A stretch of DNA of 64,000 bases from a virus (IMGVR_UViG_3300045440_000165:11735-75734); one strand, 5' to 3'. Positions 635-26,700 are shown, counted from the stretch's first letter. Program-made: numbers and translations. Notes: a model not told the origin generated them from the sequence alone.

Positions 635-1160
635 ATTGCCTATTTATTTGTGCGGCTATGCTATGGCAATGCTATATTGTATTATAACAAAACATTATTG
701 TGTAATAGGAATATAATGGGAGTGATAATACAAAAGTGGTTTCTAATACTACATCTAGTAGTTTGCCAGTGTTTTGTTAGTAGCTTATTAGCAGCTTAGT
801 ATCAGGGTATTATTATAGTGTTAGTAATATATTATTAATCGAGTAATAGCTTACTAAAGTGTGCAAGTGTGCGGAAAGTACCCTTCTAGTGTACTGCCAA
901 GGGATAACACACAAGGCATTGAGGGGGATGCCAAGGAGTATTCAAAAGAGTGTCTTCGAGAGTATCCCCAGTGTAGGGGAGGAATAATTTGATGTGAAAC
1001 AAAAAAATGTTGCCCTTCTTAGGTAGAACGGCATAAAATAGCGCGATAGATGTAAATCACAGCATAAAATATCAAATCATCAACATAAACATTACAATAA
1101 ATGCTATCGTAGAGTGATGATAGCATTCAATCCTGCAGCATCCCGTATAATCCCTATATA

Positions 1161-1173
1161 AATCAATGACTTA
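1161..1173 (+). promoter_or_regulatory. putative IHF-binding site
   Basis: AATCAATGACTTA matches WATCAANNNNTTR consensus in the long non-coding region. Confidence 0.4.
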
Positions 1174-1408
1174 CGTGTGGTCAGTGTATGTCTACCCTCT
1201 ACCTATGTGTAAGATGCCATTGTTCATTGACTCTTTATACGATGCCCATAGATGCCCCTAAAACCCCACGAGTGGCTCCAGCACTGGGTTTGAGGGTAGA
1301 GTACCAACAGAGGGCTATTAACGCCATGGTGATATTTTAGACTAGGAAATGAGGGATTTTAGGGATATGCGGTGGCCGTTACACCCCCCAAATAGAAATT
1401 TCCTATAC

Positions 1409-1462
1409 ATTTCCAAGGGTATTTCTAGATATTTTCAAGGATTTCTAAGGTATTTCTAAGGG
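1409..1462. repeat. degenerate 10-12 bp tandem repeats (ATTTCYAAGG-like)
   Basis: atttccaagggt/atttctagat/attttcaagg/atttctaaggt/atttctaaggg. Confidence 0.7.
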
Positions 1463-1484
1463 TTTTACGGGGATTTTATATATG

Positions 1485-1520
1485 TTTTACAGCCGCTATC
1501 CGATAATTTTACAGCCGCTA
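1485..1520. repeat. 14 bp direct repeat TTTTACAGCCGCTA x2
   Basis: Exact copies at 1485-1498 and 1507-1520. Confidence 0.85.
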
Positions 1521-1951
1521 ATAGCTTTTTGATATTTCCCACTATCACTAATTAATAGCCAATTTAAAATGGAAAATAGCCTAAAAATTTTAGCCTGAAA
1601 AATATTAAGGGAAGGAGATGATAGATATAGTAGATATATCAAAGTTACTGAATGTTACTTATAAGCAATGATATTTTGAGTGATATTTTGGGAGAGTTAC
1701 TGGGTATAAATATTGAATATAAACGCTAGCAATAGACACTAAGTATTGACACTAGATATAGTATAATAATTATGTAATATTATTTTGCACAAATGAATAT
1801 ATAAATATTTACATATTACAAGGTTTATAAGCTACAGATTGTATTGTGAGAATATAACCTATAACTTATAAATGGATATGAGGGATTACTTAGGAACGTG
1901 GACACGAGGTATTCGCTAGTAGGTACGAGCTACCTGAACGAAGTGATTATC

Positions 1952-1987
1952 TGCGAATGCTAGCGAATTACATGCGCAATAGCGAAT
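1952..1987. repeat. dispersed element copy A (inverted relative to 22713-22746)
   Basis: Reverse complement ATTCGCTATTGCGCATGTAATTCGCTAGCATTCGCA aligns to 22713-22746. Confidence 0.75.
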
Positions 1988-2046
1988 CCTACGAACGTAG
2001 TGAGGTATCGATGAGCGATAGCGAGTTACCATCTGGTAACAATATC

Positions 2047-2766
2047 CTACCACCTTGTGGTAATATTCGCCACAGTCTTAGCATACCATTTCCCTCCCCG
2101 TTGAGTTTTATTACCATGTAAATTTAACTCTTCAGCTATAGCATGAAAGCTCATCCCATCTTTACGCATACGAGAGATTGTAGGTTTCATGAACAATGCA
2201 AAATTATCAGCTTCTTGCTTATTAGCAATTACACTTTGCTTGTTAGCTTTATGAGCATGAGCGGCTACAGTTGGAAGAGACATTCCTAATGGCTCCCCTC
2301 TGGCTTTCTTAGCAGCGAAAGCAGCTTTAGTCCTCTCACCAATCTTCCTACGCTCCTCTTCTGCAAAGGAAGCTCTCAATTGAATTTCTAGAGGAGATAC
2401 ATCTATCCCGCATTCAGCTACGATAAATTTGGCAGAGCCATATTTGGTAGAAGAGTCCATGAGATTGAATATAAAGCTAGCTTTCCTAGACAGCCTATCA
2501 ATCTTAGAAATTAGAATAGAAGCTCCTATCTTCTGAGCATCTTTGAAAGCTTGCTTTAGTATGGGCCTTCTATCAAGATCATATTTACCAGATACTATTT
2601 CTACCCTAGTATCAATTATCTCAATACCGTGGTAGCTTGCAAAGCGCTTCATATCTTCTATTTGAGCTTCCACCCCTAATCCTGATTTCCCTTGCTCTGT
2701 AGTGGAAACACGAGCATAGGCTATTACTTGCTTGCAAGCTATAGCTTGTTTAGATATTGATTTCAT
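2047..2766 (-). CDS. serine recombinase (resolvase/invertase family) with C-terminal HTH
   Basis: YARVST catalytic motif, DRLSR, EERRKIGERTK, C-terminal IAEELN...RGGKW. Confidence 0.93.
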   Translation of the reverse strand: MKSISKQAIACKQVIAYARVSTTEQGKSGLGVEAQIEDMKRFASYHGIEIIDTRVEIVSGKYDLDRRPILKQAFKDAQKIGASILISKIDRLSRKASFIFNLMDSSTKYGSAKFIVAECGIDVSPLEIQLRASFAEEERRKIGERTKAAFAAKKARGEPLGMSLPTVAAHAHKANKQSVIANKQEADNFALFMKPTISRMRKDGMSFHAIAEELNLHGNKTQRGGKWYAKTVANITTRW

Positions 2767-2837
2767 GCATCCTCCAGAAAGTAATGAAATATAGTGTACA
2801 GGGATTAGGGGTAGTGTGCAATAATTTATTTAAAAAT

Positions 2838-3143
2838 TTATTTCTTTACCATTAGAGTGAAATATATCTCTTCCTCTTTCGATGTCCAAGTCCTAAAAAT
2901 CCCCTCTTTAGAATCAAATATAATACCAATACTATCTTCTAATTTAAATCCATATAACATATAAGGGGGTGTATTACTTGGCTGCAATAAATCACTACTT
3001 GTCAAGCTGCTACTAAAATCCCAATAATATAAAATCTCATCATCTTCCACAGATAGTTTATTCCTAATTATCTCTATTAGAATATTTAATAACCCATAAT
3101 CCACTTGTGGGTAATCATAGAATCTGTATTTTGCATTATGCAT
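2838..3143 (-). CDS. hypothetical protein
   Basis: ORF with RBS AAGGGA. Confidence 0.55.
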   Translation of the reverse strand: MHNAKYRFYDYPQVDYGLLNILIEIIRNKLSVEDDEILYYWDFSSSLTSSDLLQPSNTPPYMLYGFKLEDSIGIIFDSKEGIFRTWTSKEEEIYFTLMVKK

Positions 3144-3193
3144 TTAATACTTTCCCTTGATAAATAAATTAACACTTGCTTTTAATGAATAGC

Positions 3194-3391
3194 TTAATGC
3201 TTTGCATTAATGAATTCGCTAATAGCGGTCTCCGTAAGTGTGCAAATAGTCTTACAAAATAAATAAATAGACATTACAGTAAATAACAATGTCACCATAC
3301 TAATAGAGAATACTAATAATATCGTCATCTTTACTAGCTCGTATGGAAATAGTAATACTGAAGCTATTGCACTACGTTTCTTCTTATACAT
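3194..3391 (-). CDS. hypothetical membrane protein
   Basis: Basic N-terminus and long hydrophobic segment. Confidence 0.55.
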   Translation of the reverse strand: MYKKKRSAIASVLLFPYELVKMTILLVFSISMVTLLFTVMSIYLFCKTICTLTETAISEFINAKH

Positions 3392-3447
3392 GTAATACCC
3401 TTTTTAAAATATGTTTTTATTAAAAATACCCTTTTTAAAATAAATTT

Positions 3448-3666
3448 TCATTTAGGAACAAAATAACTAATTTTCAAATAACTATCCACCACCCTACTAA
3501 AGTCAGCTAAAAGCTCTTCTGGTGTTTTCCCTATATACATTACAACATCTTCTATCCCTTGCACATGTCCAAATAGCATATTACGGTAGAAACACACTTT
3601 GATATTTCCTTTGAATCCTTTGTAATACAGAGTTTGCCCTGAAGTCAGTGTATCGCTATTAGTCAT
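3448..3666 (-). CDS. HicB-like antitoxin (N-terminal toxin-binding domain only)
   Basis: YKGFKGNI...LFGHVQGIEDVVMYIGKTPEELLADFSRVVDSYL resembles HicB N-terminal fold; no DNA-binding domain. Confidence 0.7.
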   Translation of the reverse strand: MTNSDTLTSGQTLYYKGFKGNIKVCFYRNMLFGHVQGIEDVVMYIGKTPEELLADFSRVVDSYLKISYFVPK

Positions 3667-4022
3667 TCTCTATCTCCATAAATTGCAACTTTAATTAGCT
3701 TAGAAACAAATAGATAAGCTTCTTGATAGTCTAAGTAGCTTACATCCCCATACTCATCTATATCCCCACTTATAAACCCTCCATGCACCAATGGGCTAAA
3801 TAAATCATACTCCCAGTCAGAATTACCAAAGGGGCGTCTACCGCTAAAACTTTCTTTCGTATCCCACAGCTTATCTAGTAACATGAACAGGTAGTCTCTG
3901 ATAGATATTTCATCATCTGCTGCATCACAATAGAATCGTACATTTAATGCAGCTTCATATTTATTATCTGTCTCTAGTTCTACAAGCGGGGTGTATTGCA
4001 CACCATCAATCATTATTTGCAT
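3663..4022 (-). CDS. hypothetical protein
   Basis: Start at MQIMIDG with RBS AAGGAG; motif FSGRRPFGNSDWEYDL. Confidence 0.7.
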   Translation of the reverse strand: MQIMIDGVQYTPLVELETDNKYEAALNVRFYCDAADDEISIRDYLFMLLDKLWDTKESFSGRRPFGNSDWEYDLFSPLVHGGFISGDIDEYGDVSYLDYQEAYLFVSKLIKVAIYGDRE

Positions 4023-4182
4023 ATAGTGCTCCTTGCATAAGATGCTCCTTAAGTAATTAGAATACACTTCATTGTTTCCCTTATATCCTAAACAATAGCT
4101 AAATTGTTCTTTCATATAACATACTTTCCGCTATACACCGAATAATTAAGAAGGGAGCCGAAGAATCCCCTTACAGTAGATT

Positions 4183-4425
4183 CTAGTATGGAAGATACTC
4201 CCATTGATAATCTATCATAATTTGTTTTATCTTGCTAATAACATATTCTTCATCTTGCGTATAATAGAATGTTAATAGCTCCTTGTGTAACTTATCTGTA
4301 GGATCAATATCTCGTAAATAAGTATTATAAAAGAATTGTCCTAATCTAAGCTGTGCAGGTTTGATGCTGCGTAGTGCTACAATGAATTCCTCTAGTGACA
4401 TAGGGCCTTGTATCATAATCACCAA
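4183..4425 (-). CDS. hypothetical protein
   Basis: ORF in operon; RLGQFFYN motif. Confidence 0.6.
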   Translation of the reverse strand: MVIMIQGPMSLEEFIVALRSIKPAQLRLGQFFYNTYLRDIDPTDKLHKELLTFYYTQDEEYVISKIKQIMIDYQWEYLPY

Positions 4426-4697
4426 CCTCTGGGACTAAGATATACTCTAGCATCTTGCCCTGTAATTCTCTTGAATTTACATTTCAATGCTTCAATTACA
4501 TCAAGATCAATATTAATTTCTGTAGCACAGAAATCTCCACTACTCTCGTAAGTAAATCCAGCAATAGCATCATCTTCTCCGTCACCATCGTAATAGGGGG
4601 AACATACATCTAGTTCCTCATCCTCAATCAAATCTTGATGTGTTACTTCTCCGCGAGGAAGTCCCACCATAATGCTGGCTGCGTAACATACTCCCAT
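4419..4697 (-). CDS. hypothetical protein
   Basis: ORF with RBS AAGGA. Confidence 0.65.
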   Translation of the reverse strand: MGVCYAASIMVGLPRGEVTHQDLIEDEELDVCSPYYDGDGEDDAIAGFTYESSGDFCATEINIDLDVIEALKCKFKRITGQDARVYLSPRGW

Positions 4698-4711
4698 TAT
4701 ATTTCCTTTAA

Positions 4712-5221
4712 TTATTTATTGATCATTATTTCATGTACATCTTCCAGCGTTAATAGCTTCTTATGTACATCCCATCCTACATCCAAACATTTCCCTGTAA
4801 CACCACTATCTCTACCATGACAATGTCCATGTAACGAATATGAGCCATAGTGCTTCCTATTCCAGCTTGCAATAGGGAAATGAAACATACACACATGCTG
4901 CTTATCTGAAGTAGGAGTTTTAAAAGGTTTTTCTAGGTATAAATGAAACTCTGATACTTCTTTCTTCAGTTCCTCGTTAAATTTATCATGATTCCCTTTA
5001 ACGAATATCTTACTACCATTCAATGTACGAAGTAAGTGCAACGTAGTGTCTGTCTTATGGAAACTAAAATCTCCTAAAATATACACCATATCTGAAGGAG
5101 CTACTTGAGAATTCCATGTAGCTTTCATATGTGCATCCATTGCAGGAGTATCTGGAAAGCCCCTCATTTCCGCCATAGCTCGATGACCAAAATGTAAATC
5201 TGAAGTAAAGAAGATTGTCAT
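4712..5221 (-). CDS. calcineurin-like metallophosphoesterase
   Basis: SDLHFGH, LGD, GNHD, HFP, HGHCH, DVGWD motifs. Confidence 0.92.
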   Translation of the reverse strand: MTIFFTSDLHFGHRAMAEMRGFPDTPAMDAHMKATWNSQVAPSDMVYILGDFSFHKTDTTLHLLRTLNGSKIFVKGNHDKFNEELKKEVSEFHLYLEKPFKTPTSDKQHVCMFHFPIASWNRKHYGSYSLHGHCHGRDSGVTGKCLDVGWDVHKKLLTLEDVHEIMINK

Positions 5222-5225
5222 AATT

Positions 5226-5546
5226 TTATAAACCTACAAAACGTAGCATACATGCATCGCTACACAGTGCATATCTTCCGTGCGTAATTGCATCCTCTTC
5301 TAGCACTCTGCTTCCACAGTTATCACATGTGCATACCCCATTAAATTCTGTATACACTCCATCCCCTTTAGACGGGAATTGATCTTTAGTAGCATCTACA
5401 ATAGTACCATCAATTTTCTCACACCACCAATGTTGCTGATCACCCCAGATATAGTCGAAATAAATACCCCGAACTAACCGTAGCGATGCATCCTTGGAGC
5501 AAAGTTCTTCTGATATTTCTTTACACTTCCCTCTTAGTGGGTGCAT
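5226..5546 (-). CDS. hypothetical protein with C-terminal Zn-finger-like Cys pairs
   Basis: C..HWW..D(A)TxxQF pattern; CDNC and CSDAC. Confidence 0.65.
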   Translation of the reverse strand: MHPLRGKCKEISEELCSKDASLRLVRGIYFDYIWGDQQHWWCEKIDGTIVDATKDQFPSKGDGVYTEFNGVCTCDNCGSRVLEEDAITHGRYALCSDACMLRFVGL

Positions 5547-5612
5547 ATTTTATTCCATTAGAGTGTTAAAAAGGCAGGCACTTAAGCCCACCTAGTGTTA
5601 TGCAAGAGCATG

Positions 5613-6326
5613 TCAATGTAGGTCAGTCTTCTTTTTCCTACGCACAGGTTTTTTAGCAATAGAATTATTATCCGTAGGATTATTCTCCACAGGTTTAATA
5701 CTATCCAAAGCCTCTTCCTCTCCCGCCATTTCTTCAATAATAGAAGCTACAAGTTCTTTCCTAGCTTCCTCTCGTTTATCATACCTTTTATCAAACTCAT
5801 CTTTCCCCATGTAGAAGTCTTTCCCTGAAAGCATAGCTGATATTTCATGCTCTGTAAAGAAATCTTTATACATTTCATGGATAATAGCCTTACTAGCTTT
5901 TAGTGTATGCGCTACATGACTCTCTACGCTGCTACCAGCACCACCACTACCAAAAGACACTTGGTGGAACATTAGAGTGATATAAGGGTTGACATACACT
6001 TCATCTGCAGCCATGAGTAAGAATGTACCAGCGCTAGCAACATCACTAACAGCATGTACTCCTACAATAGCTTTAGTACGTCGCATAGAGTTTAATAACG
6101 GTAGGATAGCATGTAAAGCCCCCCCGTTAGTGGAAAGTTTAATATCCATAAAATCTCCCTCACTTGCAGCATCTAGTACAGTTACAATATCTTCGAATTG
6201 TCTTACACTCTCGAAGTCTTCATCAATAGACACTTTATAGGTCATATTGTTAGCTGTGCCAGACACTTGAAATGGCTCAGGTTTATTGCTAAGAGCTTCC
6301 AACCATTCTTCTGAAAATTTACTCAT
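5613..6326 (-). CDS. ClpP-like protease
   Basis: LSTNGG, VASAG (catalytic Ser), LMFHQ (His), KDFY (Asp) match ClpP motifs. Confidence 0.85.
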   Translation of the reverse strand: MSKFSEEWLEALSNKPEPFQVSGTANNMTYKVSIDEDFESVRQFEDIVTVLDAASEGDFMDIKLSTNGGALHAILPLLNSMRRTKAIVGVHAVSDVASAGTFLLMAADEVYVNPYITLMFHQVSFGSGGAGSSVESHVAHTLKASKAIIHEMYKDFFTEHEISAMLSGKDFYMGKDEFDKRYDKREEARKELVASIIEEMAGEEEALDSIKPVENNPTDNNSIAKKPVRRKKKTDLH

Positions 6327-6375
6327 GCCCACTCCTTTGGTTATATATAATTTTATTAAGGTTAGTATAACAATA

Positions 6376-7188
6376 TTATTGGTGGTAGTATAGCTTTACA
6401 ATAGCCTTACAAAACCCGCTTCGTAGAATATCATCCGGTGTGAAATGCACCACTCCCACACTATCTTCCAAGCTATCAAGATCACCATCATCTAAATAAT
6501 CTGGGCAATCTTCAAGAGCCTTACTGATCATTTTAAAGGTACTATCCAATCCGCTACTCTGCCCTTTATTCACTTGCCTAGTGTCTCCAGTGATAATTAG
6601 CTGGCATCCATCCCCGATACGAGATAGTAGTGTTTCATACTCCTCCTCTGTAAGCCCCTGCCCTTCTTCTAGGATTACTAAAGTATTTTCATAAGATTGC
6701 CCACGGATGAATTCAAAAGCTCTAGTAACAATAATTTCTTTATGTTGGCAATAGGAAAGATAGCCAGCTCCTAAGAATTTCCTAAAATGATCCATAGTTT
6801 GTACAAAGAAAGGTGCAAGCTTCTCTTGTTCATTACCAGTAAGCAACCCGATAGTTTTACCATTAAGTACATTAGGTCTGATCAACACTACTTGATCTAC
6901 TTTCTTTTGCTTAAGTTGAGAAGAAGCCCAGAAAGCTGCAATAAGACTCTTCCCTGTTCCGGCAGATCCTATCAATGCCACCACTTGCTTACCAGCGCGA
7001 AGGTAGGCTAGTGCTAATTTCTGATTCTGAGTTTTAGCATCAAACTTAGGCATATTAGGTTGCACTTGCTCTGCAAATACAGTGAGTCCTCCGTTGCTAT
7101 CAAACTTTGGCTTTTGTATAGGCTTCTCTCCTTCAACAATTTTATTATTACGAGTTTTGCGTACATGCCTTGTTGCAGATTTTGACAT
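6376..7188 (-). CDS. phoH: PhoH family ATPase
   Basis: KTQNQ, GSAGTGKS, RP, IRGQSY, LEEGQ, SRIG, TGDTRQ, DILRS motifs. Confidence 0.93.
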   Translation of the reverse strand: MSKSATRHVRKTRNNKIVEGEKPIQKPKFDSNGGLTVFAEQVQPNMPKFDAKTQNQKLALAYLRAGKQVVALIGSAGTGKSLIAAFWASSQLKQKKVDQVVLIRPNVLNGKTIGLLTGNEQEKLAPFFVQTMDHFRKFLGAGYLSYCQHKEIIVTRAFEFIRGQSYENTLVILEEGQGLTEEEYETLLSRIGDGCQLIITGDTRQVNKGQSSGLDSTFKMISKALEDCPDYLDDGDLDSLEDSVGVVHFTPDDILRSGFCKAIVKLYYHQ

Positions 7189-8681: not shown

Positions 8682-8710
8682 TTGACAAATAATACTTGAC
8701 ATGTTAGTAT
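8682..8710 (+). promoter_or_regulatory. sigma70-type rightward promoter
   Basis: TTGACA-17 nt-TAGTAT with extended -10 TG. Confidence 0.7.
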
Positions 8711-8832: not shown

Positions 8833-9291
8833 ATGGCTCGCGGTGATGTAAAACTTTTTGCAGAATTCATATTAAAATCTAAAGCTGGTACGGGATTCAA
8901 TTTAACTTCCGACACGCTTAAACTAGGTATTGTGGGCAACGGTGTTACACCTTCCGTTTCAACTACAGATCCACGTTGGGGTGTTGGTGGTACAACAGAT
9001 TTTTCAGCTCAACAGGTGGCTACAGGTACAGCCTACACAGGCCCTGTCACACTTACTAGCGTTGGCTATACACGTTCCAGTGGTGTGAACACAATAACAG
9101 CAGCAAATATTACCATATCTCAAGATGCCTCTGGTTTTACCACAGGGTATTGGGGTATTTTATACAACGATACTGTTGCAGGTAAATTTGCAATTGGTTT
9201 TGTCGATTTAGGCGGCCCCGTATCCATCGTTGGTGGCGCACTAAACATCAACTGGAATGCTTCAGGTATTGCAACTGAGACAGCGAGTTAA
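8833..9291 (+). CDS. putative virion structural protein (appendage module gene 1)
   Basis: RBS AAGGAG; Gly/Thr-rich beta-type sequence ending ...INWNASGI, like phage minor fibre proteins. Confidence 0.7.
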   Translation: MARGDVKLFAEFILKSKAGTGFNLTSDTLKLGIVGNGVTPSVSTTDPRWGVGGTTDFSAQQVATGTAYTGPVTLTSVGYTRSSGVNTITAANITISQDASGFTTGYWGILYNDTVAGKFAIGFVDLGGPVSIVGGALNINWNASGIATETAS

Positions 9292-9293
9292 TT

Positions 9294-10178
9294 ATGTTAG
9301 CTAACTGGGTTAAAGAAACTAGCACTACAACAGGCACTGGCACTTTGACACTAACATCGGTGCCGGGATTTCCACGCTTCAGCGAAGCATTTGCGGTTAA
9401 TGAGCTTGTAAATTACGCAATATTAACTGACGATTCTCCCCCTAAACCATTGGAGTGGGGTATTGGTACTATCGGTGCAAGTAACACCTTGGCACGTTCT
9501 GTTGTTCTTGGCACTTATGCTGGTAGTGTATTAGAGACGGGATCTCCTACAGCAGTAAGTTTATCTGCTGGTACTTATAATATTATTTGTACTCAGGTAA
9601 TGGGTAGCACAGTACCGGGAATTATCGGTGTAGACTCTACTAACGGTAGCGGTGGCATTCTCGTCCCGTTTCCGTGGATGACGTCAGGTAGTGCTGGCGG
9701 ATTAGGCACAACTGCTGATAGACTTTATTTGTGCAACTTTAGGGTTAGTACACCGCGTAAGATTACAAGTATAAAAATGCGCGTGGGAATTAGCATAACA
9801 GGCAATTGTAGGATGGGTATTTACAAAGTTAAAACTGATGGTACTGCGGGTGAGCTTCTATATTCATCTGAGGATATATCCACTACAGCGGGCGGTGTTA
9901 TTTCATGGACTTTTTCTCCTGCTAAGATTTTACCTCCGGGTTGGTACTATTTTGGTTTTGCACCAAAGGGTATCGCTCCTAACATGAACGTGTTTTCTTA
10001 CAATGCTACTTATTCAGCCGAAACATTGGTTGGTACAGATTCTACAGCGGTGCAAGGGATTATTTATAAATATGCAGCCCTTTCAGGTGGATGGACAACT
10101 TTACCAAATCCTGCACCTACTAGCCTAACGGCTGTGAATAACTCAGCCCCTCCAGCATTTGGCTTGACGTTAGGATAA
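9294..10178 (+). CDS. putative fibre/appendage protein (module gene 2)
   Basis: N-terminal ANWVKETSTTTGTGTLTL typical of phage fibre-anchor domains; C-terminal beta-sandwich-like region. Confidence 0.7.
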   Translation: MLANWVKETSTTTGTGTLTLTSVPGFPRFSEAFAVNELVNYAILTDDSPPKPLEWGIGTIGASNTLARSVVLGTYAGSVLETGSPTAVSLSAGTYNIICTQVMGSTVPGIIGVDSTNGSGGILVPFPWMTSGSAGGLGTTADRLYLCNFRVSTPRKITSIKMRVGISITGNCRMGIYKVKTDGTAGELLYSSEDISTTAGGVISWTFSPAKILPPGWYYFGFAPKGIAPNMNVFSYNATYSAETLVGTDSTAVQGIIYKYAALSGGWTTLPNPAPTSLTAVNNSAPPAFGLTLG

Positions 10179-10180
10179 TC

Positions 10181-11521
10181 ATGAGTATAGGACTAGAATC
10201 ATTAGGTTTAATTCCAATTGGTTTGCCGTCCACTAGTCAAGCCAGTAATGCAACTACAGTCAGTTGTACTACTGGCGCTATGGCAATTGGTGGATTAACC
10301 GCGACTGTAGGAACATCTACAACTATTTCATGCTCTGTGGCTTCGTTAAGTGTAGCCGGACTTAGTGCAAACGTTCAATTTGGCACTATTACGATAACAA
10401 GTCCTGTCACTTTTCAAACATTCCAAAGAGATGGATCTAATCAAGCTAATATTGCAATAACAGGTACATACACAGGTTCCCCAACGTCTATTCAAGCTAG
10501 TTTTAACGGGGGGGCTTGGGCTAATATCGTGGCATCTCCAGCAGGCGGGACTTTTTCAGGTACATTGTCAGCTCAGTCTATGGGGCAGGGTACCTTATCT
10601 GTGAGATTCGGTAATGATACGTCTGTTGTTGCAACTAAGTTAAAAGTTAAAATTGGCGACATCTACATAGTAATGGGGCAATCAAATCACGTTGGTCAAG
10701 CACCCAACTATGTGAATCCATCTACTGCAAATGGTAATGCATCAATTTGGGGTGTAGACGGGACTTGGCGGGAGTTGCTAGAAACAACTTCCGATAGATT
10801 TAGTACACGTGCTAATGGCGTGCAATGTAGTGCGATGAATCAGTTGGTAGTTGACGGTCAAGGCTCGTATTTCGGTGCTTTGGCGACATTGATCATGGCT
10901 GCGGGTGTGCCTGTTGCATTTGTGCCGTGCGCGATTGGTAGTTCTGCTATTTCAGGGTGGCAACCCGGTGGCACACATAATAACCCGGCCACGGCTTACG
11001 GCTCAGCATTAACACGTGCTCAATCTGTTGGTAATTTTAAGGCCGCGTTATGGTATCAAGGTGAGATGGACGGTCTTTTAGCTACTACTTACGCGACTTA
11101 TGTATCTCTACTAAACTCATTGATTGATAGCTGGTATGCAGATACCGGCAAAAAGGTAGTTGTTTATCTTACTAATCGAACAGGTTCCGGCACATTGTCT
11201 GCAGCTCAGACAATCCAGAATGCTCAATTGTATGTTGGTAGGAGTAATGCAAACGCTATTCCCGGACCAAACATGGATTTACTGTGGAGTAGCAATGTCC
11301 ACTACCAAACAGCAGGGGATATAAATGCTGTTGCTTCAAAAACATTTGATGTGTTATCAGCTCAATACTACGGGGGAACTGTAGTCAGTTGCAGCGCAGC
11401 TTCCATACCGGATATTGGACTATCATGCTCGATTTCAGCTTCTGGTGGCGCAAGTGCAGCCGTACTACCTCACTGGAACCCTCCTCTTTTCTCAAAAATG
11501 AACGGAAATTTTCAAGGCTAG
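10181..11521 (+). CDS. virion-associated SGNH/SASA (sialate O-acetylesterase-like) protein with repeat scaffold
   Basis: GQSN, GSSAISGW, WYQGE and VHY motifs; Ig-like segment; three T-x-x-S-C repeats. Confidence 0.8.
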   Translation: MSIGLESLGLIPIGLPSTSQASNATTVSCTTGAMAIGGLTATVGTSTTISCSVASLSVAGLSANVQFGTITITSPVTFQTFQRDGSNQANIAITGTYTGSPTSIQASFNGGAWANIVASPAGGTFSGTLSAQSMGQGTLSVRFGNDTSVVATKLKVKIGDIYIVMGQSNHVGQAPNYVNPSTANGNASIWGVDGTWRELLETTSDRFSTRANGVQCSAMNQLVVDGQGSYFGALATLIMAAGVPVAFVPCAIGSSAISGWQPGGTHNNPATAYGSALTRAQSVGNFKAALWYQGEMDGLLATTYATYVSLLNSLIDSWYADTGKKVVVYLTNRTGSGTLSAAQTIQNAQLYVGRSNANAIPGPNMDLLWSSNVHYQTAGDINAVASKTFDVLSAQYYGGTVVSCSAASIPDIGLSCSISASGGASAAVLPHWNPPLFSKMNGNFQG

Positions 11522-11524
11522 AAT

Positions 11525-12409
11525 ATGTTACAAACATTTAAAAATGGGCAGGGTTCTGTCGTACTAAGGGTAAAGTTGCTAGATTCTTCTGCAACAACTG
11601 GGGCCGGTCTAACCGGCTTAACAAGCGCATCATCTGGTCTTATTATCTCTACAATTGCAGATAATGAGGCAACAGCGGTGGCATATACTGTGGCAGGGGC
11701 TACTATAGAGACAATTACAACTCTAGGTACTTACGCTGCCCCTACAGCTTCGAAATGCCGATTTAAGGAAGTGGATGCAACAAACCATAAAGGTGTATAT
11801 GAGATTCAAATCGCAGATGCTAGATTCGCTGTTGCAAGCGCTAAAAGCCTCATAGTTAGCATTGCTGGTGCTACGAATTTGGCACAAGCGGATTTTGTAG
11901 TCCAATTGCAAAGTGATGATCCGTATATTGCAAAGCCAACTAACTATGCATCTTTGGTTATCGATGGTAGTGGTCGTGTGGATGTTAGCAAAATTGCTGG
12001 TACTGCACAGACAGGAAGAGATATTGGAGCAAGTGTCCTTGTATCTTCTGGTACAGGTACAGGACAAATTAGTATTACTTCAGGTGTTGTTAGTAGTAAT
12101 ATTACGCAAATCGGTGGTAGTGTTCCTGCACTTACAGGCTTCAAACAAGCAGTTCTTGGTAACGTTGTTGGTACTGTTGGCTCTGCAAGTTCAACTACTA
12201 GTATTGTAACTTCTGCTTTAACTCCTGCTGGCGCTGCAACAGACCAATTTAAAGGTAGGATTATTACTTTTGATCAGGCAACAACTACAGTAGCTCTTAG
12301 AGGTCAGTCAACAGACATTACAGCAAGTACAAACTCTGCTACTCCTACATTCACAGTTACAGCTCTTACTACAGCGCCTGTTTCTGGTGACACGTTTAGC
12401 ATTACTTAA
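11525..12409 (+). CDS. putative virion structural protein (module gene 4)
   Basis: Thr/Ala/Gly-rich; DSSATTGAGLTGL, KEVDATNHKGVYE, C-terminal TAPVSGDTFSIT. Confidence 0.7.
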   Translation: MLQTFKNGQGSVVLRVKLLDSSATTGAGLTGLTSASSGLIISTIADNEATAVAYTVAGATIETITTLGTYAAPTASKCRFKEVDATNHKGVYEIQIADARFAVASAKSLIVSIAGATNLAQADFVVQLQSDDPYIAKPTNYASLVIDGSGRVDVSKIAGTAQTGRDIGASVLVSSGTGTGQISITSGVVSSNITQIGGSVPALTGFKQAVLGNVVGTVGSASSTTSIVTSALTPAGAATDQFKGRIITFDQATTTVALRGQSTDITASTNSATPTFTVTALTTAPVSGDTFSIT

Positions 12410-12411
12410 TC

Positions 12412-12702
12412 ATGGCTATCACTAGGGTTAGTTCTGGCGGGTTTGGAGCTAGAAGGTCTGGCAGCTTTGCTAGTAAATACGTAGCCCCTGTGGTAATTAA
12501 AACTAGACTCGGCTCTTCTGGATTTGGTGTTCGCAGGTCTGGAAGTTTTGCTGGTAAAACAGCATCAATCACTTCCTCGTTAAAGACAAGGTTGGGTTCC
12601 GGTGGTTTTGGCGTTAGAAGAGCTGGTAGTTTTTTAAGTAAATCACAGACAGGAAGTATTTTAGCTTCATGTTTAACAATAGTGCGTAGACGCAGGAGAT
12701 AG
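12412..12702 (+). CDS. small basic protein with three TRxxSxGFGxRRxGSFxxK repeats and RRRRR tail
   Basis: Tightly packed in operon; repeat conserved at protein level with synonymous divergence. Confidence 0.8.
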   Translation: MAITRVSSGGFGARRSGSFASKYVAPVVIKTRLGSSGFGVRRSGSFAGKTASITSSLKTRLGSGGFGVRRAGSFLSKSQTGSILASCLTIVRRRRR

Positions 12703-12704
12703 AT

Positions 12705-13100
12705 ATGGCAGTAAGAAGTGTTTCTAGAGGTTTAGTAGGGTCATCAAGCGTTAGCCTTGAAGATGGCTCCAAGATATTTGATGATGAACTAGGAAGAGTT
12801 GTCACTATCTCTTGGAGCGGTTTGCTCAATGGTGACTCAGGGGAGCCTGCTAATTTAGCAGAATTCTCAGATAGAAGTATACAGATTGCAGGTACGCTAG
12901 GCACAGGTGGAACAATAGTAGTGGAAGGATCTAATGATGGTACAACTTATTATACGTTAAAAGATCTATTTGGTACATCCTTATCTACTACTTCTCTAAT
13001 ATTAGCTGGAATAGCTGAAATTACAAAATGGATACGGGTGAGGGTAACAGCAGGTAATGGTTCTACAAATCTACAAGCTATTATTGTAGCACGTAGATAG
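12705..13100 (+). CDS. putative virion structural protein (module gene 6)
   Basis: EGSNDG and WIRVRV motifs of small beta-sandwich phage proteins. Confidence 0.7.
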   Translation: MAVRSVSRGLVGSSSVSLEDGSKIFDDELGRVVTISWSGLLNGDSGEPANLAEFSDRSIQIAGTLGTGGTIVVEGSNDGTTYYTLKDLFGTSLSTTSLILAGIAEITKWIRVRVTAGNGSTNLQAIIVARR

Positions 13101-13710: not shown

Positions 13711-15147
13711 TTGACAAAAGAACAAGCTCCTGTGTTCTCTCCCAGTTCAGAGTGCCATAGGATATTTCTAAACTGTAAGAGTAACTTTATCATATTTGGT
13801 GGTGGCGCGGGGTGCGGGAAAACGCATCAAGCCCTAATGCTCATCTTGAAATATAAAGATGATCCTAATTTCAGAGCTGTATTCATCCGAGAAACATCTA
13901 CGCAGCTATCACAAGCGGGTGGTTTGTTCCAAGAAGCACAAGCTATGTGGAAATATTTTGGCGCGGTATTTAAATACATGCCAAATATGAGTGCCACATT
14001 TCCTTCAGGTGCTCAAGTACAGTTTAAAGTGTGCGGTGCTGATAGAGATATTTCAAACTACGACGGTGGACAATACTCATTAGTAATTTTTGATGAAGCT
14101 CAAAACCACTCAGAAGTGCAGGTACGTTATCTAGAATCTCGTATCCGCTCTAAAGCTAAAGGCCCACACCAGTTAATAGCAACATGTAATCCAAAGTTTA
14201 ATTCTTGGCTATTGCCATTTGTTCATCCTTACCTAGATCCTGATTCTGGTATTCCTAATCCGGATATGTTCGCTAAGGAAATGTACTATGGCTCCTACGG
14301 CGGTAAGATAGTAATTGGCAGATCAAAAGAAGAGCTAATAGCTCAATATCCAGATATAAGCTGCCAAAGTTATACCTTCATTGCAGCTACAATCGCAGAT
14401 AATCCTATCATGCGAAAGCTCAACCCAGAGTATGTAAAACGACTTGAAGGCTTGAAGCGAGTAGAAAGAGAACGATTATTATTAGGCTCATGGTTTGCTA
14501 AAGAAAACAATTCATCCTACTTTAAACGAGATTGGGTAGAAATAATAGACAAGCCTCCTACTAATGCAGCTATGCGCGTTAGAGGTATGGACTTTGCAGC
14601 AACACTCCCATCGGAGAGTAATCCTAATCCAGACTGGACAGCTTCTGTTCTAGTTAGTAGAACTCCAGACTTCTATGTTATCGAGCATGTCGAGCGCTAC
14701 AGGAAACTTACTAACAGCGTTCTTGAACATATTGTAGAGACAGCTAAAGCTGATAGAGGGTACTCAGGTGATGTACCTGTCTATTTCCCTAGAGATCCCG
14801 GCGCTGCTGGTGCTCAGTCTAGCATGTTTTTTATTAAATATCTAGTGGAACATGGGGTGATAGCCAAAGCTGAAAAAAGCTCAGGGCATTCGGGTAAGTT
14901 ATCTAGAGCACAGCCATTCTTAAGCTTATGTGAAGCTGGCTTGGTTAAGGTTGTTAAAGGAGATTGGAACGCTGATTTCTTTAACGAGCTAGAAGAATAT
15001 GTAGATGGTAAGCGAGGACAGAAAGATGATATGTGGGATGCTTGTGCTACAGCGTTTAAAGCTGTTATGAAGCAGAATACATTACCTTCATTTTCACTAC
15101 CTTCTGGTATGACTCAAGCTAGTCCTATACCAACTATACATGGATAG
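13711..15147 (+). CDS. terL: terminase large subunit
   Basis: Walker A GGAGCGKT, Walker B IFDE, ATCNP, nuclease GMDFA and KDDMWDA; TTG start with RBS GAGGA. Confidence 0.96.
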   Translation: MTKEQAPVFSPSSECHRIFLNCKSNFIIFGGGAGCGKTHQALMLILKYKDDPNFRAVFIRETSTQLSQAGGLFQEAQAMWKYFGAVFKYMPNMSATFPSGAQVQFKVCGADRDISNYDGGQYSLVIFDEAQNHSEVQVRYLESRIRSKAKGPHQLIATCNPKFNSWLLPFVHPYLDPDSGIPNPDMFAKEMYYGSYGGKIVIGRSKEELIAQYPDISCQSYTFIAATIADNPIMRKLNPEYVKRLEGLKRVERERLLLGSWFAKENNSSYFKRDWVEIIDKPPTNAAMRVRGMDFAATLPSESNPNPDWTASVLVSRTPDFYVIEHVERYRKLTNSVLEHIVETAKADRGYSGDVPVYFPRDPGAAGAQSSMFFIKYLVEHGVIAKAEKSSGHSGKLSRAQPFLSLCEAGLVKVVKGDWNADFFNELEEYVDGKRGQKDDMWDACATAFKAVMKQNTLPSFSLPSGMTQASPIPTIHG

Positions 15148-18198: not shown

Positions 18199-18891
18199 AT
18201 GAGCGTAATTGCTACAAGCACTAATGTTTTCTCAACTGTTATCAAGCACGAATATGAGCCAAGCGTAGGTTTTTGCCGCGAAGCTGTCACCGTGTATGAT
18301 TCAGCTAGCACTTTCACACCGGGATCTGTTCTTGGTCGTTTCTTGGCAAGCCCTGTTTGCACTCCAGCAGCAGTAGTAGGTACTGGTAACGGTAGTATCG
18401 GCACTGTCACAGGTACAGGTAAAGCTATTGTTGGTACTTACACATTGCGTATCGTGTTGGCAGCAGCTAATGCAGGTAACTTCGAATTGTTCAACCCTAA
18501 TGGTGTATTGGTTGGCGTAGGTACTGTAGGTACAGCATTCGTATCTCCAGACATGACTTTCACTTTAGCCGATGGTTCCACAGACTTTGCTCTCGGTGAC
18601 ACTATTGCTATCGCTGTAACTGGCACCTACAAATACAAACTTGTAGAAGCTACTGCAACTGATGGCACAGCCGTTGCTGCAGGTATTTATATTGCTGATG
18701 CGTTGGGTAATTCTGGTGATGTAGCTATTGCAGCTAACACAGATACCACTGTCTTGGCAATCGTTCGTGGCCCTGTTGTGTACTCAAAAGATGAGCTTTC
18801 TTTCGGAGCTTCTGTTGATACCACTGCAGAGAAGAATAAAGCGTATGCAGAATTGGCGGCTCTTGGTATTGTTGCTGCTACCACAGCCTAA
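18199..18891 (+). CDS. head decoration protein
   Basis: Upstream of MCP; CREAVTV...GSVLG and VRGP...LAALGI motifs with central insertion. Confidence 0.8.
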   Translation: MSVIATSTNVFSTVIKHEYEPSVGFCREAVTVYDSASTFTPGSVLGRFLASPVCTPAAVVGTGNGSIGTVTGTGKAIVGTYTLRIVLAAANAGNFELFNPNGVLVGVGTVGTAFVSPDMTFTLADGSTDFALGDTIAIAVTGTYKYKLVEATATDGTAVAAGIYIADALGNSGDVAIAANTDTTVLAIVRGPVVYSKDELSFGASVDTTAEKNKAYAELAALGIVAATTA

Positions 18892-23796: not shown

Positions 23797-26700
23797 ATGA
23801 GCATAGATGTATCAACCTTGGCAATTGAGGTACGATCAACAGGCATTAAACAAGCTGCTGAAGAACTAAAGCAAATAGCCACAAGTGGAAAAGCGGCTGA
23901 AGATAGAGTTAAAACACTAACCGAGTCTATTGGCAAACTATCGAAAGTATTTACAGAAGGCGCTGGTACTGCTGCAGCTTTTAAACAAGCTATGCAAGGA
24001 ATAGACACATCTATAGGTGCTCAGGGAGCTTCTATGTCTATGCTTGGTAAGTCTATGAAAGAACTAAACTCTAGCACATCTGTGCTAAATTCTGGCATTA
24101 GCGGGTTGAGTCCTAAAGTGAGAGATAGCAATGTAGCTATCATGAGCAGTGCTAAAGTAATGGACACAGCTCATGCAGCAGCTAGAGGTTTATCTGGCAG
24201 CTTAGGTGCTCTATGGATAACCTACGGAAACTTAGTGCCGATGATGGCAGGTATTGCTGTGGGTGCTTCACTGAAGGGTATTGTAAGTGTAGGTAAGGAA
24301 GTAGAGAATACCCTAGAGAATGTACGTATCATGGGGCAATCTACTACTGAGCAAGTCAATCAGATGCGAGAGGCTATCTACAATTTAGGCACTGGCGTTA
24401 AAGGGCCAAAAGATGTAGCAGAAGCTTTCCAAGTGTTAACCTTGGCAGGTTTGAATGCTAAAGAAGCTATGCAGGGTATTGGTGCAGCTTTAAACTTATC
24501 TATTGTCGGTGGTGTTAGTATTGAGAAAGCTTCAGAGGTATTAGTGCAAGTAGGTACTTCGTTAGGTTATACAGCAGATGGCTTTGCTCACGTAGGTGAT
24601 GTTATTGCTAAAACTGCAGCAGTGTCTATGTCCTCTGTGGCGAGTATTTCTGGCGCTTTTAAATCTGCAGCTTCGGTAGGTGAATTGTACGGAGCTTCAT
24701 TGCAAGATATTGGTGTCAGCTTGGCAACACTATCTAACTTAGGTATCCAAGATACTGCTGCAGGTACTGCGTTGAAAAATTTCTATGGGGATTTATCTAA
24801 GAGCACTGATAAAGTTAGTGTAGCTTTTAAAGCTATGAAAATGTCCTTAGCTGATTTAAAAGATGCTGACGGATATTTCCTTCCTATCGTAGAAGTGGTT
24901 ACAAAGTTGGATAAAGGTCTTAGCAACCTAACTGGCCCTGAGAGACAGAAAGCAATGACCATGCTGTTTCAAGAGCGTGGTGTTAAAGATGCTACAGGGT
25001 TGTTTAAAGCTTTAGATACAGCCTCTACCGAGCTAAATGAAAAAGGTGAGAAGTACGCCACAAAGCTAGAAGAAATCAACGATAGAATCCACAAGAGCTA
25101 CGGCTTTGCAGCACTAGGTGCTATAGCAATGTCCCAAACAACTCAAGGGCAATTGAAAGCTGTAGCCAACACTCTAGAAACGACATTCCTAAAAGCATTC
25201 CAAGAAGTAGAGCCTCAAATTGGAAGTGTAGCACGAGCATTATCTGCAGCGTTTAAATCTGATGAATTTGTTAGCGCTATTAAGAATATTGCAATAGCTG
25301 TAGCCGACCTTACCAAGTGGATAGTTGATCACTACAATTGGATTGAAAAATTAATACTAGCCTATATCTCTTTCAAAGGGATAGGCATGGTTGCGTCTCT
25401 AACGCAAATGGGAGTAGCTTTCGGAGCTACAACAATTGCTGCTAGAGGATTTGCATTAGCGTTAGGGCCGATAGCTGTTGGTATTGCTGCTGTATCTGCC
25501 GCATGGTTGTATTTCTATAATCTTAAGAAAAGTACGGAATCTACTTTTGATGAGAGTTCTGTAAAGGGTTTTGAAGCTCAAGTTGTTGCAATGGAAGAAG
25601 CTAATGCTGCCCTCACAACACAAATTGAGTTGCGCTTGAAAGGTGAGACAGAACAAAGTATTGCTGCAAAAATGGAAGAGAAGCGGCAGCAACAAAGTAT
25701 TAGCAGAGCTAGGGAAGCTTCTGCAGCTAGTGTTAAAATTCTAGAGCTAGAGCTGGAGAAGAAGAAAATAGCATTAAACGATTACGAGCAAGGTAAGTTG
25801 GACAGGCTAAATAAAGGGGAGAAAGTAGGAACTATACCTTCTAAAGTTAAGGCTGTTATCGATGAGGAAAAGAAATTAACCGAAGCACGAGAATTGAATA
25901 TTAACCTCCTCAAAAGATCAGAAGCAGTTCAAGAAGGTATTATAAATAAATCTAAATACTTAGCTGATGAGCAAGACAGGATAGCTAAAGCTGCAAGAAT
26001 TAAAAACACAGGCTCTGACAAGATTCCTACAAAAGACTCAGAAGGGTCTGAGAAAGCTAGTTTCCTCAAAGCTGAAAGATTAAACTTAGAGAAGTTACTA
26101 GAGACATACCGCGAGCGTACCATAGCTGTGCAAGAGTCTGCTGATAGCGAACTTCGGGTAATGGCTAACGTAGAACAAGCGAGGGTTACAGCTAATTTTA
26201 ACAATAACAAATATGCAAGTGAGAGAATTTACCAAGCAGAGTTGGAATTAGCAAAGCTTGTTGATATAGCTAAGTTTGAGCAACAAAAAGCTAACGCAAT
26301 AGCGGAACAAAAGAACAAGATTACTGAAATTATCCGTCGAGAAGAAGCATACCAAAAAGATGCTGAAAACTCTGGAGGCACACGTCTAGGTCTAATAGAG
26401 AAGCAAACTATCGCTTTATTTAGATTCAATGGTGAGTCGGAAGAAAGTATTAAAAAGTGGAGAGAAATGGCAAAAGTCTCTGATGAGATGGTTGCTAGTG
26501 AAGCTGCTCGCGCTAAAATGAAAACAGCTACAGAGAAACTTAATGTAGACACTGGCAGCTTGAAGCAACAAGCCGATGCTCTATTTGAGTTAGGAACAGC
26601 AGGTAAGAAATCTGAATTAGCTATCGCTGAATTGCAAGTTGCTGAAGGTAAGTTTGCTGGTGCAGCAGATGAGTTTATGACTAAGCAATACCTGAAAGCT

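Follow-up and report, generated by a model that had tools for sequence, protein, structure and literature searches.

Sequence analysis of a six-gene module that opens the late operon of a siphovirus-like phage suggests an accessory host-surface-binding appendage of the rope-and-bead type

The stretch analysed here (the window, 64,000 nucleotides) covers bases 11735-75734 of a 75.7-kb linear virus record in IMG/VR (IMGVR_UViG_3300045440_000165), whose completeness is estimated at 88%. At positions 8833-13100 of the window, six co-directional open reading frames (ORFs) on the + strand encode proteins of 152, 294, 446, 294, 96 and 131 amino acids (aa), to which we refer, in order, as g152, g294a, g446, g294b, g96 and g131; the gaps between them measure 2, 2, 3, 2 and 2 nt. 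Inspection of the ORFs and of their translations bore out the initial annotation as regards the close spacing of the six genes, the repeats and terminal motifs of g446, and the repeats and arginine tail of g96. Here we discuss the module as a candidate set of parts for an accessory appendage that would bind the host surface; all its features given below lie on the + strand, in window coordinates, and comparison loci are designated by L numbers.

The module stands at the start of a late operon that runs on the + strand from 8833 to about 35900. A divergent intergenic region of 256 nt precedes it, and a 113-aa ORF and then the terminase gene terL (13711-15147; PF03237/PF17289; phrog_979, E = 2e-149) follow it. 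Further downstream, in order, the operon encodes the portal, a protease of the S49 type, a decoration protein like lambda gpD, the major capsid protein, connectors, the major tail protein, a tape measure of 2173 aa, proteins of 384 aa, 671 aa and less, and the lysis proteins. From this gene order, the phage looks like a long-tailed siphovirus. The nearest relatives of its terL product are terminases of the PAK_P1/Felix O1 type, at about 40% identity, and the same comparison revealed no close cultured phage. The module had also been credited with its own promoter; a site in the divergent region does match the consensus, and only that (TTGACA-17-TAGTAT with TG; 8682-8710, + strand), but promoter-like sites in the region do not exceed those in shuffled sequences (17 versus 13.8 +/- 3.9).

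All five domain families of the module are single-copy within the 75.7-kb record. Pfam holds no family for five of the six proteins, and the PHROGs families matched are all of unknown function. GenBank phages were searched at nucleotide and protein level with the whole module, g446, g294b and the N-terminal domain of g294a, without a match; g152 and g131 as queries matched only a few metagenomic or Gordonia records. Sequence searches of the PDB, made with single proteins and with profiles, were negative except for g294a, which matched 9jwb_Z, and g446, which matched 2apj. Furthermore, the two 294-aa proteins proved to be mutually unrelated and hence do not form one hub family.

The longest protein, g446 (10181-11521), may be described as a short "rope" fused to an esterase. 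It starts with MSIGLESLGLIPIGL, ends in KMNGNFQG and carries three repeats of about 21 aa with the pattern T.[VI]SC....GL.A.V, at residues 25-46 and 47-68 (10253-10384) and 400-421 (11378-11443), which flank the esterase domain. The latter (residues 160-381; 10658-11323) matches PF03629 over profile positions 3-214 of 226 (E = 1.3e-20; 74.4 bits against a cutoff of 24.8), has the catalytic serine motif GQSN at residues 166-169, and matches the esterase of PDB entry 2apj with E = 7e-7. By this profile match, which upholds the earlier proposal of an esterase in the module, g446 is a member of the SASA family of SGNH-type sialate/carbohydrate O-acetylesterases, with catalysis as a prediction. The rope-type proteins (window 10187-10228; L053, from 8795; L073, from 5946; L113, L137 and L176) resemble one another at the N-terminus, where Leu/Ile and Gly/Glu alternate in a loose motif (IGLESLGLIPIGL, ILGEAALGEVALGEE, LKLETGDYLLLETGDKLLLE) that was spotted by eye only.

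The first gene of the module, g152 (8833-9291), encodes a small globular protein and candidate "bead" of the phrog_644 family (E = 2.8e-8), a very widespread family of proteins of about 140-150 aa with 6228 cluster representatives matching at E <= 1e-3. Its nearest named cluster in the Atlas is that of gp80 (PF23140), the fibre I protein of phage GP4 (score 0.87, 180 features), and its size is right for a subunit of the gp80 fold (about 140-170 aa); by analogy, g152 is handled here as a gp80-like candidate. Its closest homologues (41-79% identity) are found in L093, L094 and L097, and near each of them lies a protein that bears the 21-aa repeat of g446 on an otherwise unrelated body: a beta-helix-like protein of 624 aa with 8 repeats, a 485-aa protein with 8-9 copies and a 175-aa protein with 2 copies, respectively. 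Since the repeat type adjoins g152 homologues elsewhere, repeats 1 and 2 of g446 are candidate docking sites for g152.

Other members of the g152 family also have repeat proteins as neighbours. A P22-like contig has g152-like and g294a-like genes and, after them, one for a 362-aa repeat protein starting with ILGEAALGEVALGEE; the g152-like genes of Gordonia phages precede those for "minor tail proteins" with about 11 repeats, and those of marine contigs precede genes for repeat proteins of 300-330 aa. Across 166 loci, repeat-rich proteins (internal-repeat score above the 95th percentile) account for 20 of the 86 ORFs downstream of a g152-family or Gp80-family gene, within 3.5 kb, versus 64 of 1271 other ORFs (Fisher p = 5e-8). 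Moreover, some g152-family proteins are tandem duplications of 263-291 aa with 2-3 matched stretches (P0136, P0177, P0186, P0211, P0215 and P0228), and their sequences would fit a dimer as the working unit.

The second gene, g294a (9294-10178), encodes a protein modelled as two domains (predicted local distance difference test score, pLDDT, 85): an N-terminal domain of fibre-anchor type (residues 1-103), globular and marked by the motif TTTTGTG within its first 100 residues, and a C-terminal jelly-roll of carbohydrate-binding type (residues 108-294). The N-terminal family begins proteins that are annotated as "tail fiber" in Methylophilales phage Venkman, Roseobacter phage CRP-6, Pelagibacter phage HTVC023P and Azospirillum phage Cd and whose C-termini vary, and it matches a portal-tail chain of GP4 with Z 6.3. 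Gordonia phage GMA1 is a further cultured carrier of families found in the module. The jelly-roll resembles gp25 of cyanophage A4 (9jwb_Z; VIA Z 19.6, 24% identity, Foldseek E = 3e-8, phmmer E = 1.5e-4) and the tail tip protein of Bxb1 (Z 15.6). The slot of g152-like genes, immediately upstream of a gene for a TTTTGTG domain, is also held by true Gp80 genes, in L075 (E = 1.8e-49), Venkman (gp59) and CRP-6 (gp62). Full-length homologues of g294a (L056-L060, L066; gp51 of Azospirillum phage Cd) are often followed by a protein of about 170 aa that is not a rope; annotated as DUF4376 in phage Cd, it may be a fibre assembly or tip protein.

The C-terminal tail motif of g446 (LPHWNPPLFSKMNGNFQG; 11459-11518) resembles tails found elsewhere upstream of g294b-like genes. 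In the window, g294b (11525-12409) begins with an immunoglobulin (Ig)-like domain (residues 1-133; 11525-11923) modelled at a pLDDT of about 97, and ends in a region with a low-confidence model (residues 183-294; 12071-12406; pLDDT below 60) that is common only to L002, L007 and L039. The Ig-like domain recurs with 50-87% identity in 51 IMG/VR loci, most of whose remaining genes are unrelated to those of the window, and the proteins that contain it have variable C-terminal extensions, with total lengths from 124 to 1209 aa; it is absent from GenBank phages by protein search. A tail of the g446 type ends the gene immediately upstream of the g294b-like gene in 25 of 37 non-redundant loci, versus 15 of 497 other ORFs of these loci when a simple pattern is applied (p = 9e-24), examples being GGPFPHYTRQANSLAGGFQGLGL, VHPGTAGGMRG and RGGFING. 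The upstream proteins measure 67-755 aa and have related bodies in only 11 of 666 pairs, so that it is the tail that they have in common. We considered whether the upstream gene might be read through or fused into the g294b-like gene and rejected this: with spacings between -8 and +119 nt, the two genes are not kept in frame.

Fold searches with the N-terminal domain of g294b returned only generic Ig-like matches in the PDB, all within the chance range (Z at most 6.8), among them 80alpha (6.8) and BppU of TP901-1 (5.6 with 3uh8, 5.4 with 4v96); neither a GP4 chain nor a solved collar was among the matches listed. A structural neighbour of the domain in the Atlas carries head-completion domains (template modelling score, TM, 0.54). 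In the same resource, residues 1-135 also fall beside a large cluster of stand-alone Ig look-alikes of about 158 aa, mostly bacterial (Verrucomicrobiota) and presumably derived from prophages.

The last two genes encode small proteins. The putative linker g96 (12412-12702) has three RLGSSGFGVRRSGSFAGK-type repeats, at residues 5-22, 32-49 and 60-77, and a hydrophobic and poly-Arg tail at residues 88-96 (C-terminus LTIVRRRRR); 14 of its 96 residues are Arg and none is acidic. The repeats are 52-56% identical as protein, and about half of the identical residues are coded by different codons, which indicates that selection acts on the peptide. Only two clear relatives of g96 were found, in L039 (2 repeats) and L002 (1 repeat), both directly after g294b-like genes that share the C-terminal region of the window's g294b; L039 has a g131-like gene as well. 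In turn, g131 (12705-13100), a small and probably beta-rich protein that may anchor poly-Arg tails, matches nothing in Pfam or the PDB and belongs to a family present in 372 IMG/VR loci; in podovirus-like contigs its relatives come after the capsid gene and before adaptor/nozzle genes. Hydrophobic and poly-Arg C-termini (DWIVQARRRGRR, QFVIIMRRRRRR) occur in 15 of 80 g131-family loci versus 2 of 81 other phage loci (p = 7e-4), and several of the proteins so tailed are strongly repetitive ropes (L111, L137, L175). A podovirus contig (L092, MW202742.1) combines, at 871-5737, a g131-like gene, a g152-family gene, a "pectate lyase" with the rope-type N-terminal motif that ends in AARRRKD, and a 196-aa repeat protein ending in IRRRRD; judged from these features, the cluster looks like a compact version of the same kit.

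We favour, with a probability of roughly 0.55, the reading that the module codes for an accessory appendage that binds the host surface, a variant of the rope-and-bead architecture whose parts are interchangeable and joined by short linear peptide motifs. The short rope would be g446, each of whose three 21-aa repeats would bind g152, probably as dimers and by beta-sheet augmentation. The esterase in the middle of the rope, active-looking, is predicted to strip O-acetyl groups from surface polysaccharide, and the extreme C-terminal tail of g446 would plug into the Ig-like domain of g294b. A short fibre would be made by g294a, with its head of carbohydrate-binding type and, at its N-terminus, a conserved domain of anchor type. 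A second linker would be provided by g96, its repeats holding g294b-type partners and its hydrophobic poly-Arg tail being held by g131, or lying next to it. By analogy with esterase tailspikes, the role of the whole would be reversible binding and de-O-acetylation of surface polysaccharide during adsorption.

Because it carries both bead-type repeats and an Ig-docking tail, g446 would link g152 to g294b, and gene neighbourhoods at a few loci support the chain g152, g446, g294b, g96, g131. The appendage would most likely be assembled at the head-tail junction, with the tail tip as the main alternative. Related genes lie in head or neck contexts between terL and the portal gene (L003, L039) or after the portal gene (L097, CRP-6), and in L048 a stand-alone Ig-domain gene precedes an Ad1 adaptor gene. 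The initial annotation had proposed that short motifs dock on neighbouring folded proteins and had named beforehand co-occurrence of motif and neighbour as a check; three pairs passed it, whereas contact itself, like the tree-like branching and the position at head or collar, is something that we infer.

More tentatively, and with somewhat more doubt than belief, these pairs may be regarded as parts of a portable "peptide docking code" of at least three motif/domain pairs in uncultured tailed phages, one that would let unrelated enzymes and binding domains hang on very different virions. The pairs would be the 21-aa repeats with g152-type beads, the C-terminal tail with the Ig-like domain, and the hydrophobic poly-Arg tail with g131-type domains. 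The tail follows the pattern [P-H-W/Y]...[M/L]-x-G-G/N-[F/L/M]-x-G and is paired with a highly conserved Ig-like domain; if the code is true, this pair would be an undescribed universal adaptor.

Several observations weigh against the appendage as we picture it. The motif patterns were drawn up after inspection of the data, and neighbouring genes are co-inherited, hence their co-occurrence is no proof of contact. The subtype of the tail covaries only weakly with the start of the Ig protein (rho 0.10; 106 of 2000 permutations), and an Ig-like domain that is 60-87% identical between unrelated phages would not readily be expected to bind the neck proteins particular to each. Poly-Arg tails directly adjoining g131 are not significant (p = 0.075), and in structural comparisons the g294a head matches best with a capsid cement protein. 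Tail-tip contexts exist too, beside tail assembly and minor tail genes in L050 and in the minor-tail regions of Gordonia phages and mycobacteriophages. As to the bead, g152 is not filed as a PF23140 member because neither profile nor profile-profile comparison links them: Pfam gave no match at E <= 1, and hhalign of the g152 family against Gp80 gave E = 0.08 over 9 aligned columns and, at a second try, a probability of 6.7%. A single one of 113 family members matches PF23140 (E = 0.036); the search for Gp80 homologues yielded only sequences more than 80% identical, by which the profile was not improved. Finally, the g294b Ig-like domain occurs in none of the 80 g131-family loci, from which it follows that the six genes may be three separate cassettes. 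The exact chain put forward in the initial annotation, 131 > 96 > 3 x 294 > 446, does not hold up well against this figure either, being seen in few loci, with the link between g96 and g294b in only three.

Such a set of three independent two-gene cassettes (g152 with g294a, g446 with g294b, g96 with g131), each an ordinary tail-tip side fibre or receptor-binding protein and none part of a single branched structure, seems to us rather unlikely. In its favour, the pairs travel alone elsewhere, as bead with TTTTGTG domain, tail-motif protein with Ig domain, and poly-Arg tail with g131, and the L050 cassette sits among tail genes. The 384-aa, 671-aa and small proteins encoded 3' of the tape measure are without recognisable Dit, Tal or receptor-binding family; fibres must therefore be coded somewhere, and the earlier statement that the tail operon already has a fibre is not established. 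The likeness of the g294a head to the Bxb1 tail-tip protein also agrees with cassettes, as do the weak resemblances of the g294b N-terminal domain to baseplate proteins of 80alpha and TP901-1, but the latter scores are within the chance range. Moreover, g446 physically links two of the cassettes by its bead-type repeats and Ig-docking tail, in L002 and L039 a g96-like gene comes after a g294b-like one, and many contexts are those of head or neck and not of the tail tip.

The module adjoins head genes, g131-family genes come after the capsid gene in podovirus-like contigs, and residues 108-294 of g294a find their best match in the A4 gp25 cement protein; g294a and its partners might thus be auxiliary cement or glycan-binding decorations of the capsid. 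This is very improbable in our view, as A4 gp25 uses an extended N-terminal anchor whereas the N-terminal domain of g294a is globular and of a "tail fiber" family, the phage already codes for a lambda gpD-like decoration protein (PF02924), and the same jelly-roll also occurs in tail-tip proteins. Hardly more probable is a role outside the virion, in which the proteins would be soluble enzymes or accessory proteins released at lysis, and g96 a protamine-like DNA-binding or internal protein. The very basic composition of g96, the five proteins without a Pfam family and a degree of conservation of the Ig-like domain that is unusual for a structural protein would agree with it, but it is with this module that the late structural operon starts, proteins related to g152 and g294a have been annotated as fibre parts or solved as such, and the pairings of motifs and domains suggest assembly.

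The initial annotation knew of no characterised system with this layout. This can no longer be maintained, since the Fiber-1 of GP4, the chain-like fibres of VP1 and A1002 and the collar-whiskers of Bas63 work in this manner: folded proteins docked on repeated short motifs are an already characterised architecture, of which the module is a variant. In the Ralstonia podophage GP4, according to Zheng et al. (2023) as related in PMC12609058 and PMC13730344, the "rope" is a protein of its own, which carries five gp80 dimers and is interlocked with the Ig-like collar of the neck. In the Pseudomonas podophage A1002, the nozzle-rope gp39 offers 11 successive docking sites to gp40/gp41 dimers, each of which forms an augmented beta-sheet with the rope, and gp11 of Vibrio phage VP1 is similar (PMC13730344). 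The myophage Bas63 has a collar protein with a short rope extension that bears two whisker dimers (PMC12609058). The suggestion that the number of repeats would set the number of attached copies agrees, by analogy, with these solved rope-and-dimer fibres (PMC13730344, PMC12609058).

With GP4 Fiber-1 the module shares a small protein of about 140 aa beside a protein of tandem repeats of about 20 aa, a repeat number that, in the module too, would fix the number of dimers, and the presence of both an Ig-like protein and a separate rope. Indeed, g446 has what marks a rope, namely tandem candidate docking repeats of about 20 aa and a gene near the bead gene. The arrangement recurs in the GP4-like phage Eline, where gp42, a gp80 orthologue (E = 4e-86 to 8jou_a), is followed by gp43, 325 aa of repeats of about 20 aa. 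Unlike in GP4, g152 is not detectable as PF23140, the rope of the window has only three repeats with the esterase in its middle, and the tail motif at its end is paired with another Ig-like domain, that of g294b; besides, GP4 is a podophage and the phage of the window is siphovirus-like. The beta-sheet augmentation of small dimers on successive rope sites in A1002 and VP1 is the mechanism that we suppose for g152 on the g446 repeats; the A1002 rope, however, is part of the tail nozzle, whereas in the window there is no nozzle, the rope is joined to an enzyme, and g96 is present as a second linker. The Felixounavirus Bas63 is akin in being no podovirus, in having an Ig-like neck collar with a dimer-bearing rope such as we propose for the module, and in that the terL of the window is near those of Felix O1 relatives, but its rope and collar form one protein, where those of the window would be separate proteins joined by terminal peptides; no sequence link between module proteins and Bas63 proteins was found.

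Two further systems resemble single parts of the module. Cyanophage A4 gp25 is a trimeric auxiliary cement protein with a carbohydrate-binding module (PMC12002296); the C-terminal jelly-roll of g294a is clearly homologous to it, but the extended N-terminal capsid anchor of gp25 differs from the globular, fibre-type N-terminal domain of about 100 aa in g294a. The BppU protein of TP901-1 binds Dit through an N-terminal beta-sandwich and holds three receptor-binding trimers by its C-terminal domain, a comparison for which the Z score of g294b stays in the chance range.

Esterase tailspikes and branched sets, such as gp63.1/gp66 of G7C and TSP1-4 of CBA120, provide a functional counterpart: a virion SGNH-type esterase deacetylates surface polysaccharide for adsorption, and several receptor-binding proteins hang on one another. 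In these sets, the trimeric spikes branch by means of folded N-terminal adaptor domains of the T4 gp10 type instead of short peptide repeats and terminal tails; a T4 gp10-like domain was not found in the window proteins with Pfam.

Other genes of the window complete the picture of its setting. The tape measure gene (23797-30318; 2173 aa) implies an unusually long non-contractile tail. The lambda gpD-like head decoration protein (18199-18891; PF02924, E = 3e-10) measures 230 aa against a profile of 116 positions, so that a large insertion is probable. On the - strand at 5613-7188, immediately before the late operon, lie genes for a PhoH-like ATPase and a ClpP-like protease, and a second protease, of the S49 type, is encoded in the head module.

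In the sources searched, three aspects appear to be undescribed: an esterase embedded in a rope, a rope function divided between g446 and g96, and the widespread pair of tail motif and Ig-like domain. If the pairings are physical, they would provide simple sequence rules for predicting, from metagenomic sequence alone, what phage proteins join in one assembly and how many copies of each it holds, and would explain the swapping of depolymerases and binding modules between distant phages; they would also supply small peptide tags that, with the domains that match them, could serve to fix enzymes or binding modules of choice on the virions of laboratory phages. If the favoured reading is true, the rope-and-bead architecture, solved so far in three podophages and one myophage, would extend to siphovirus-like phages, with the module offering a rope fused to an enzyme.

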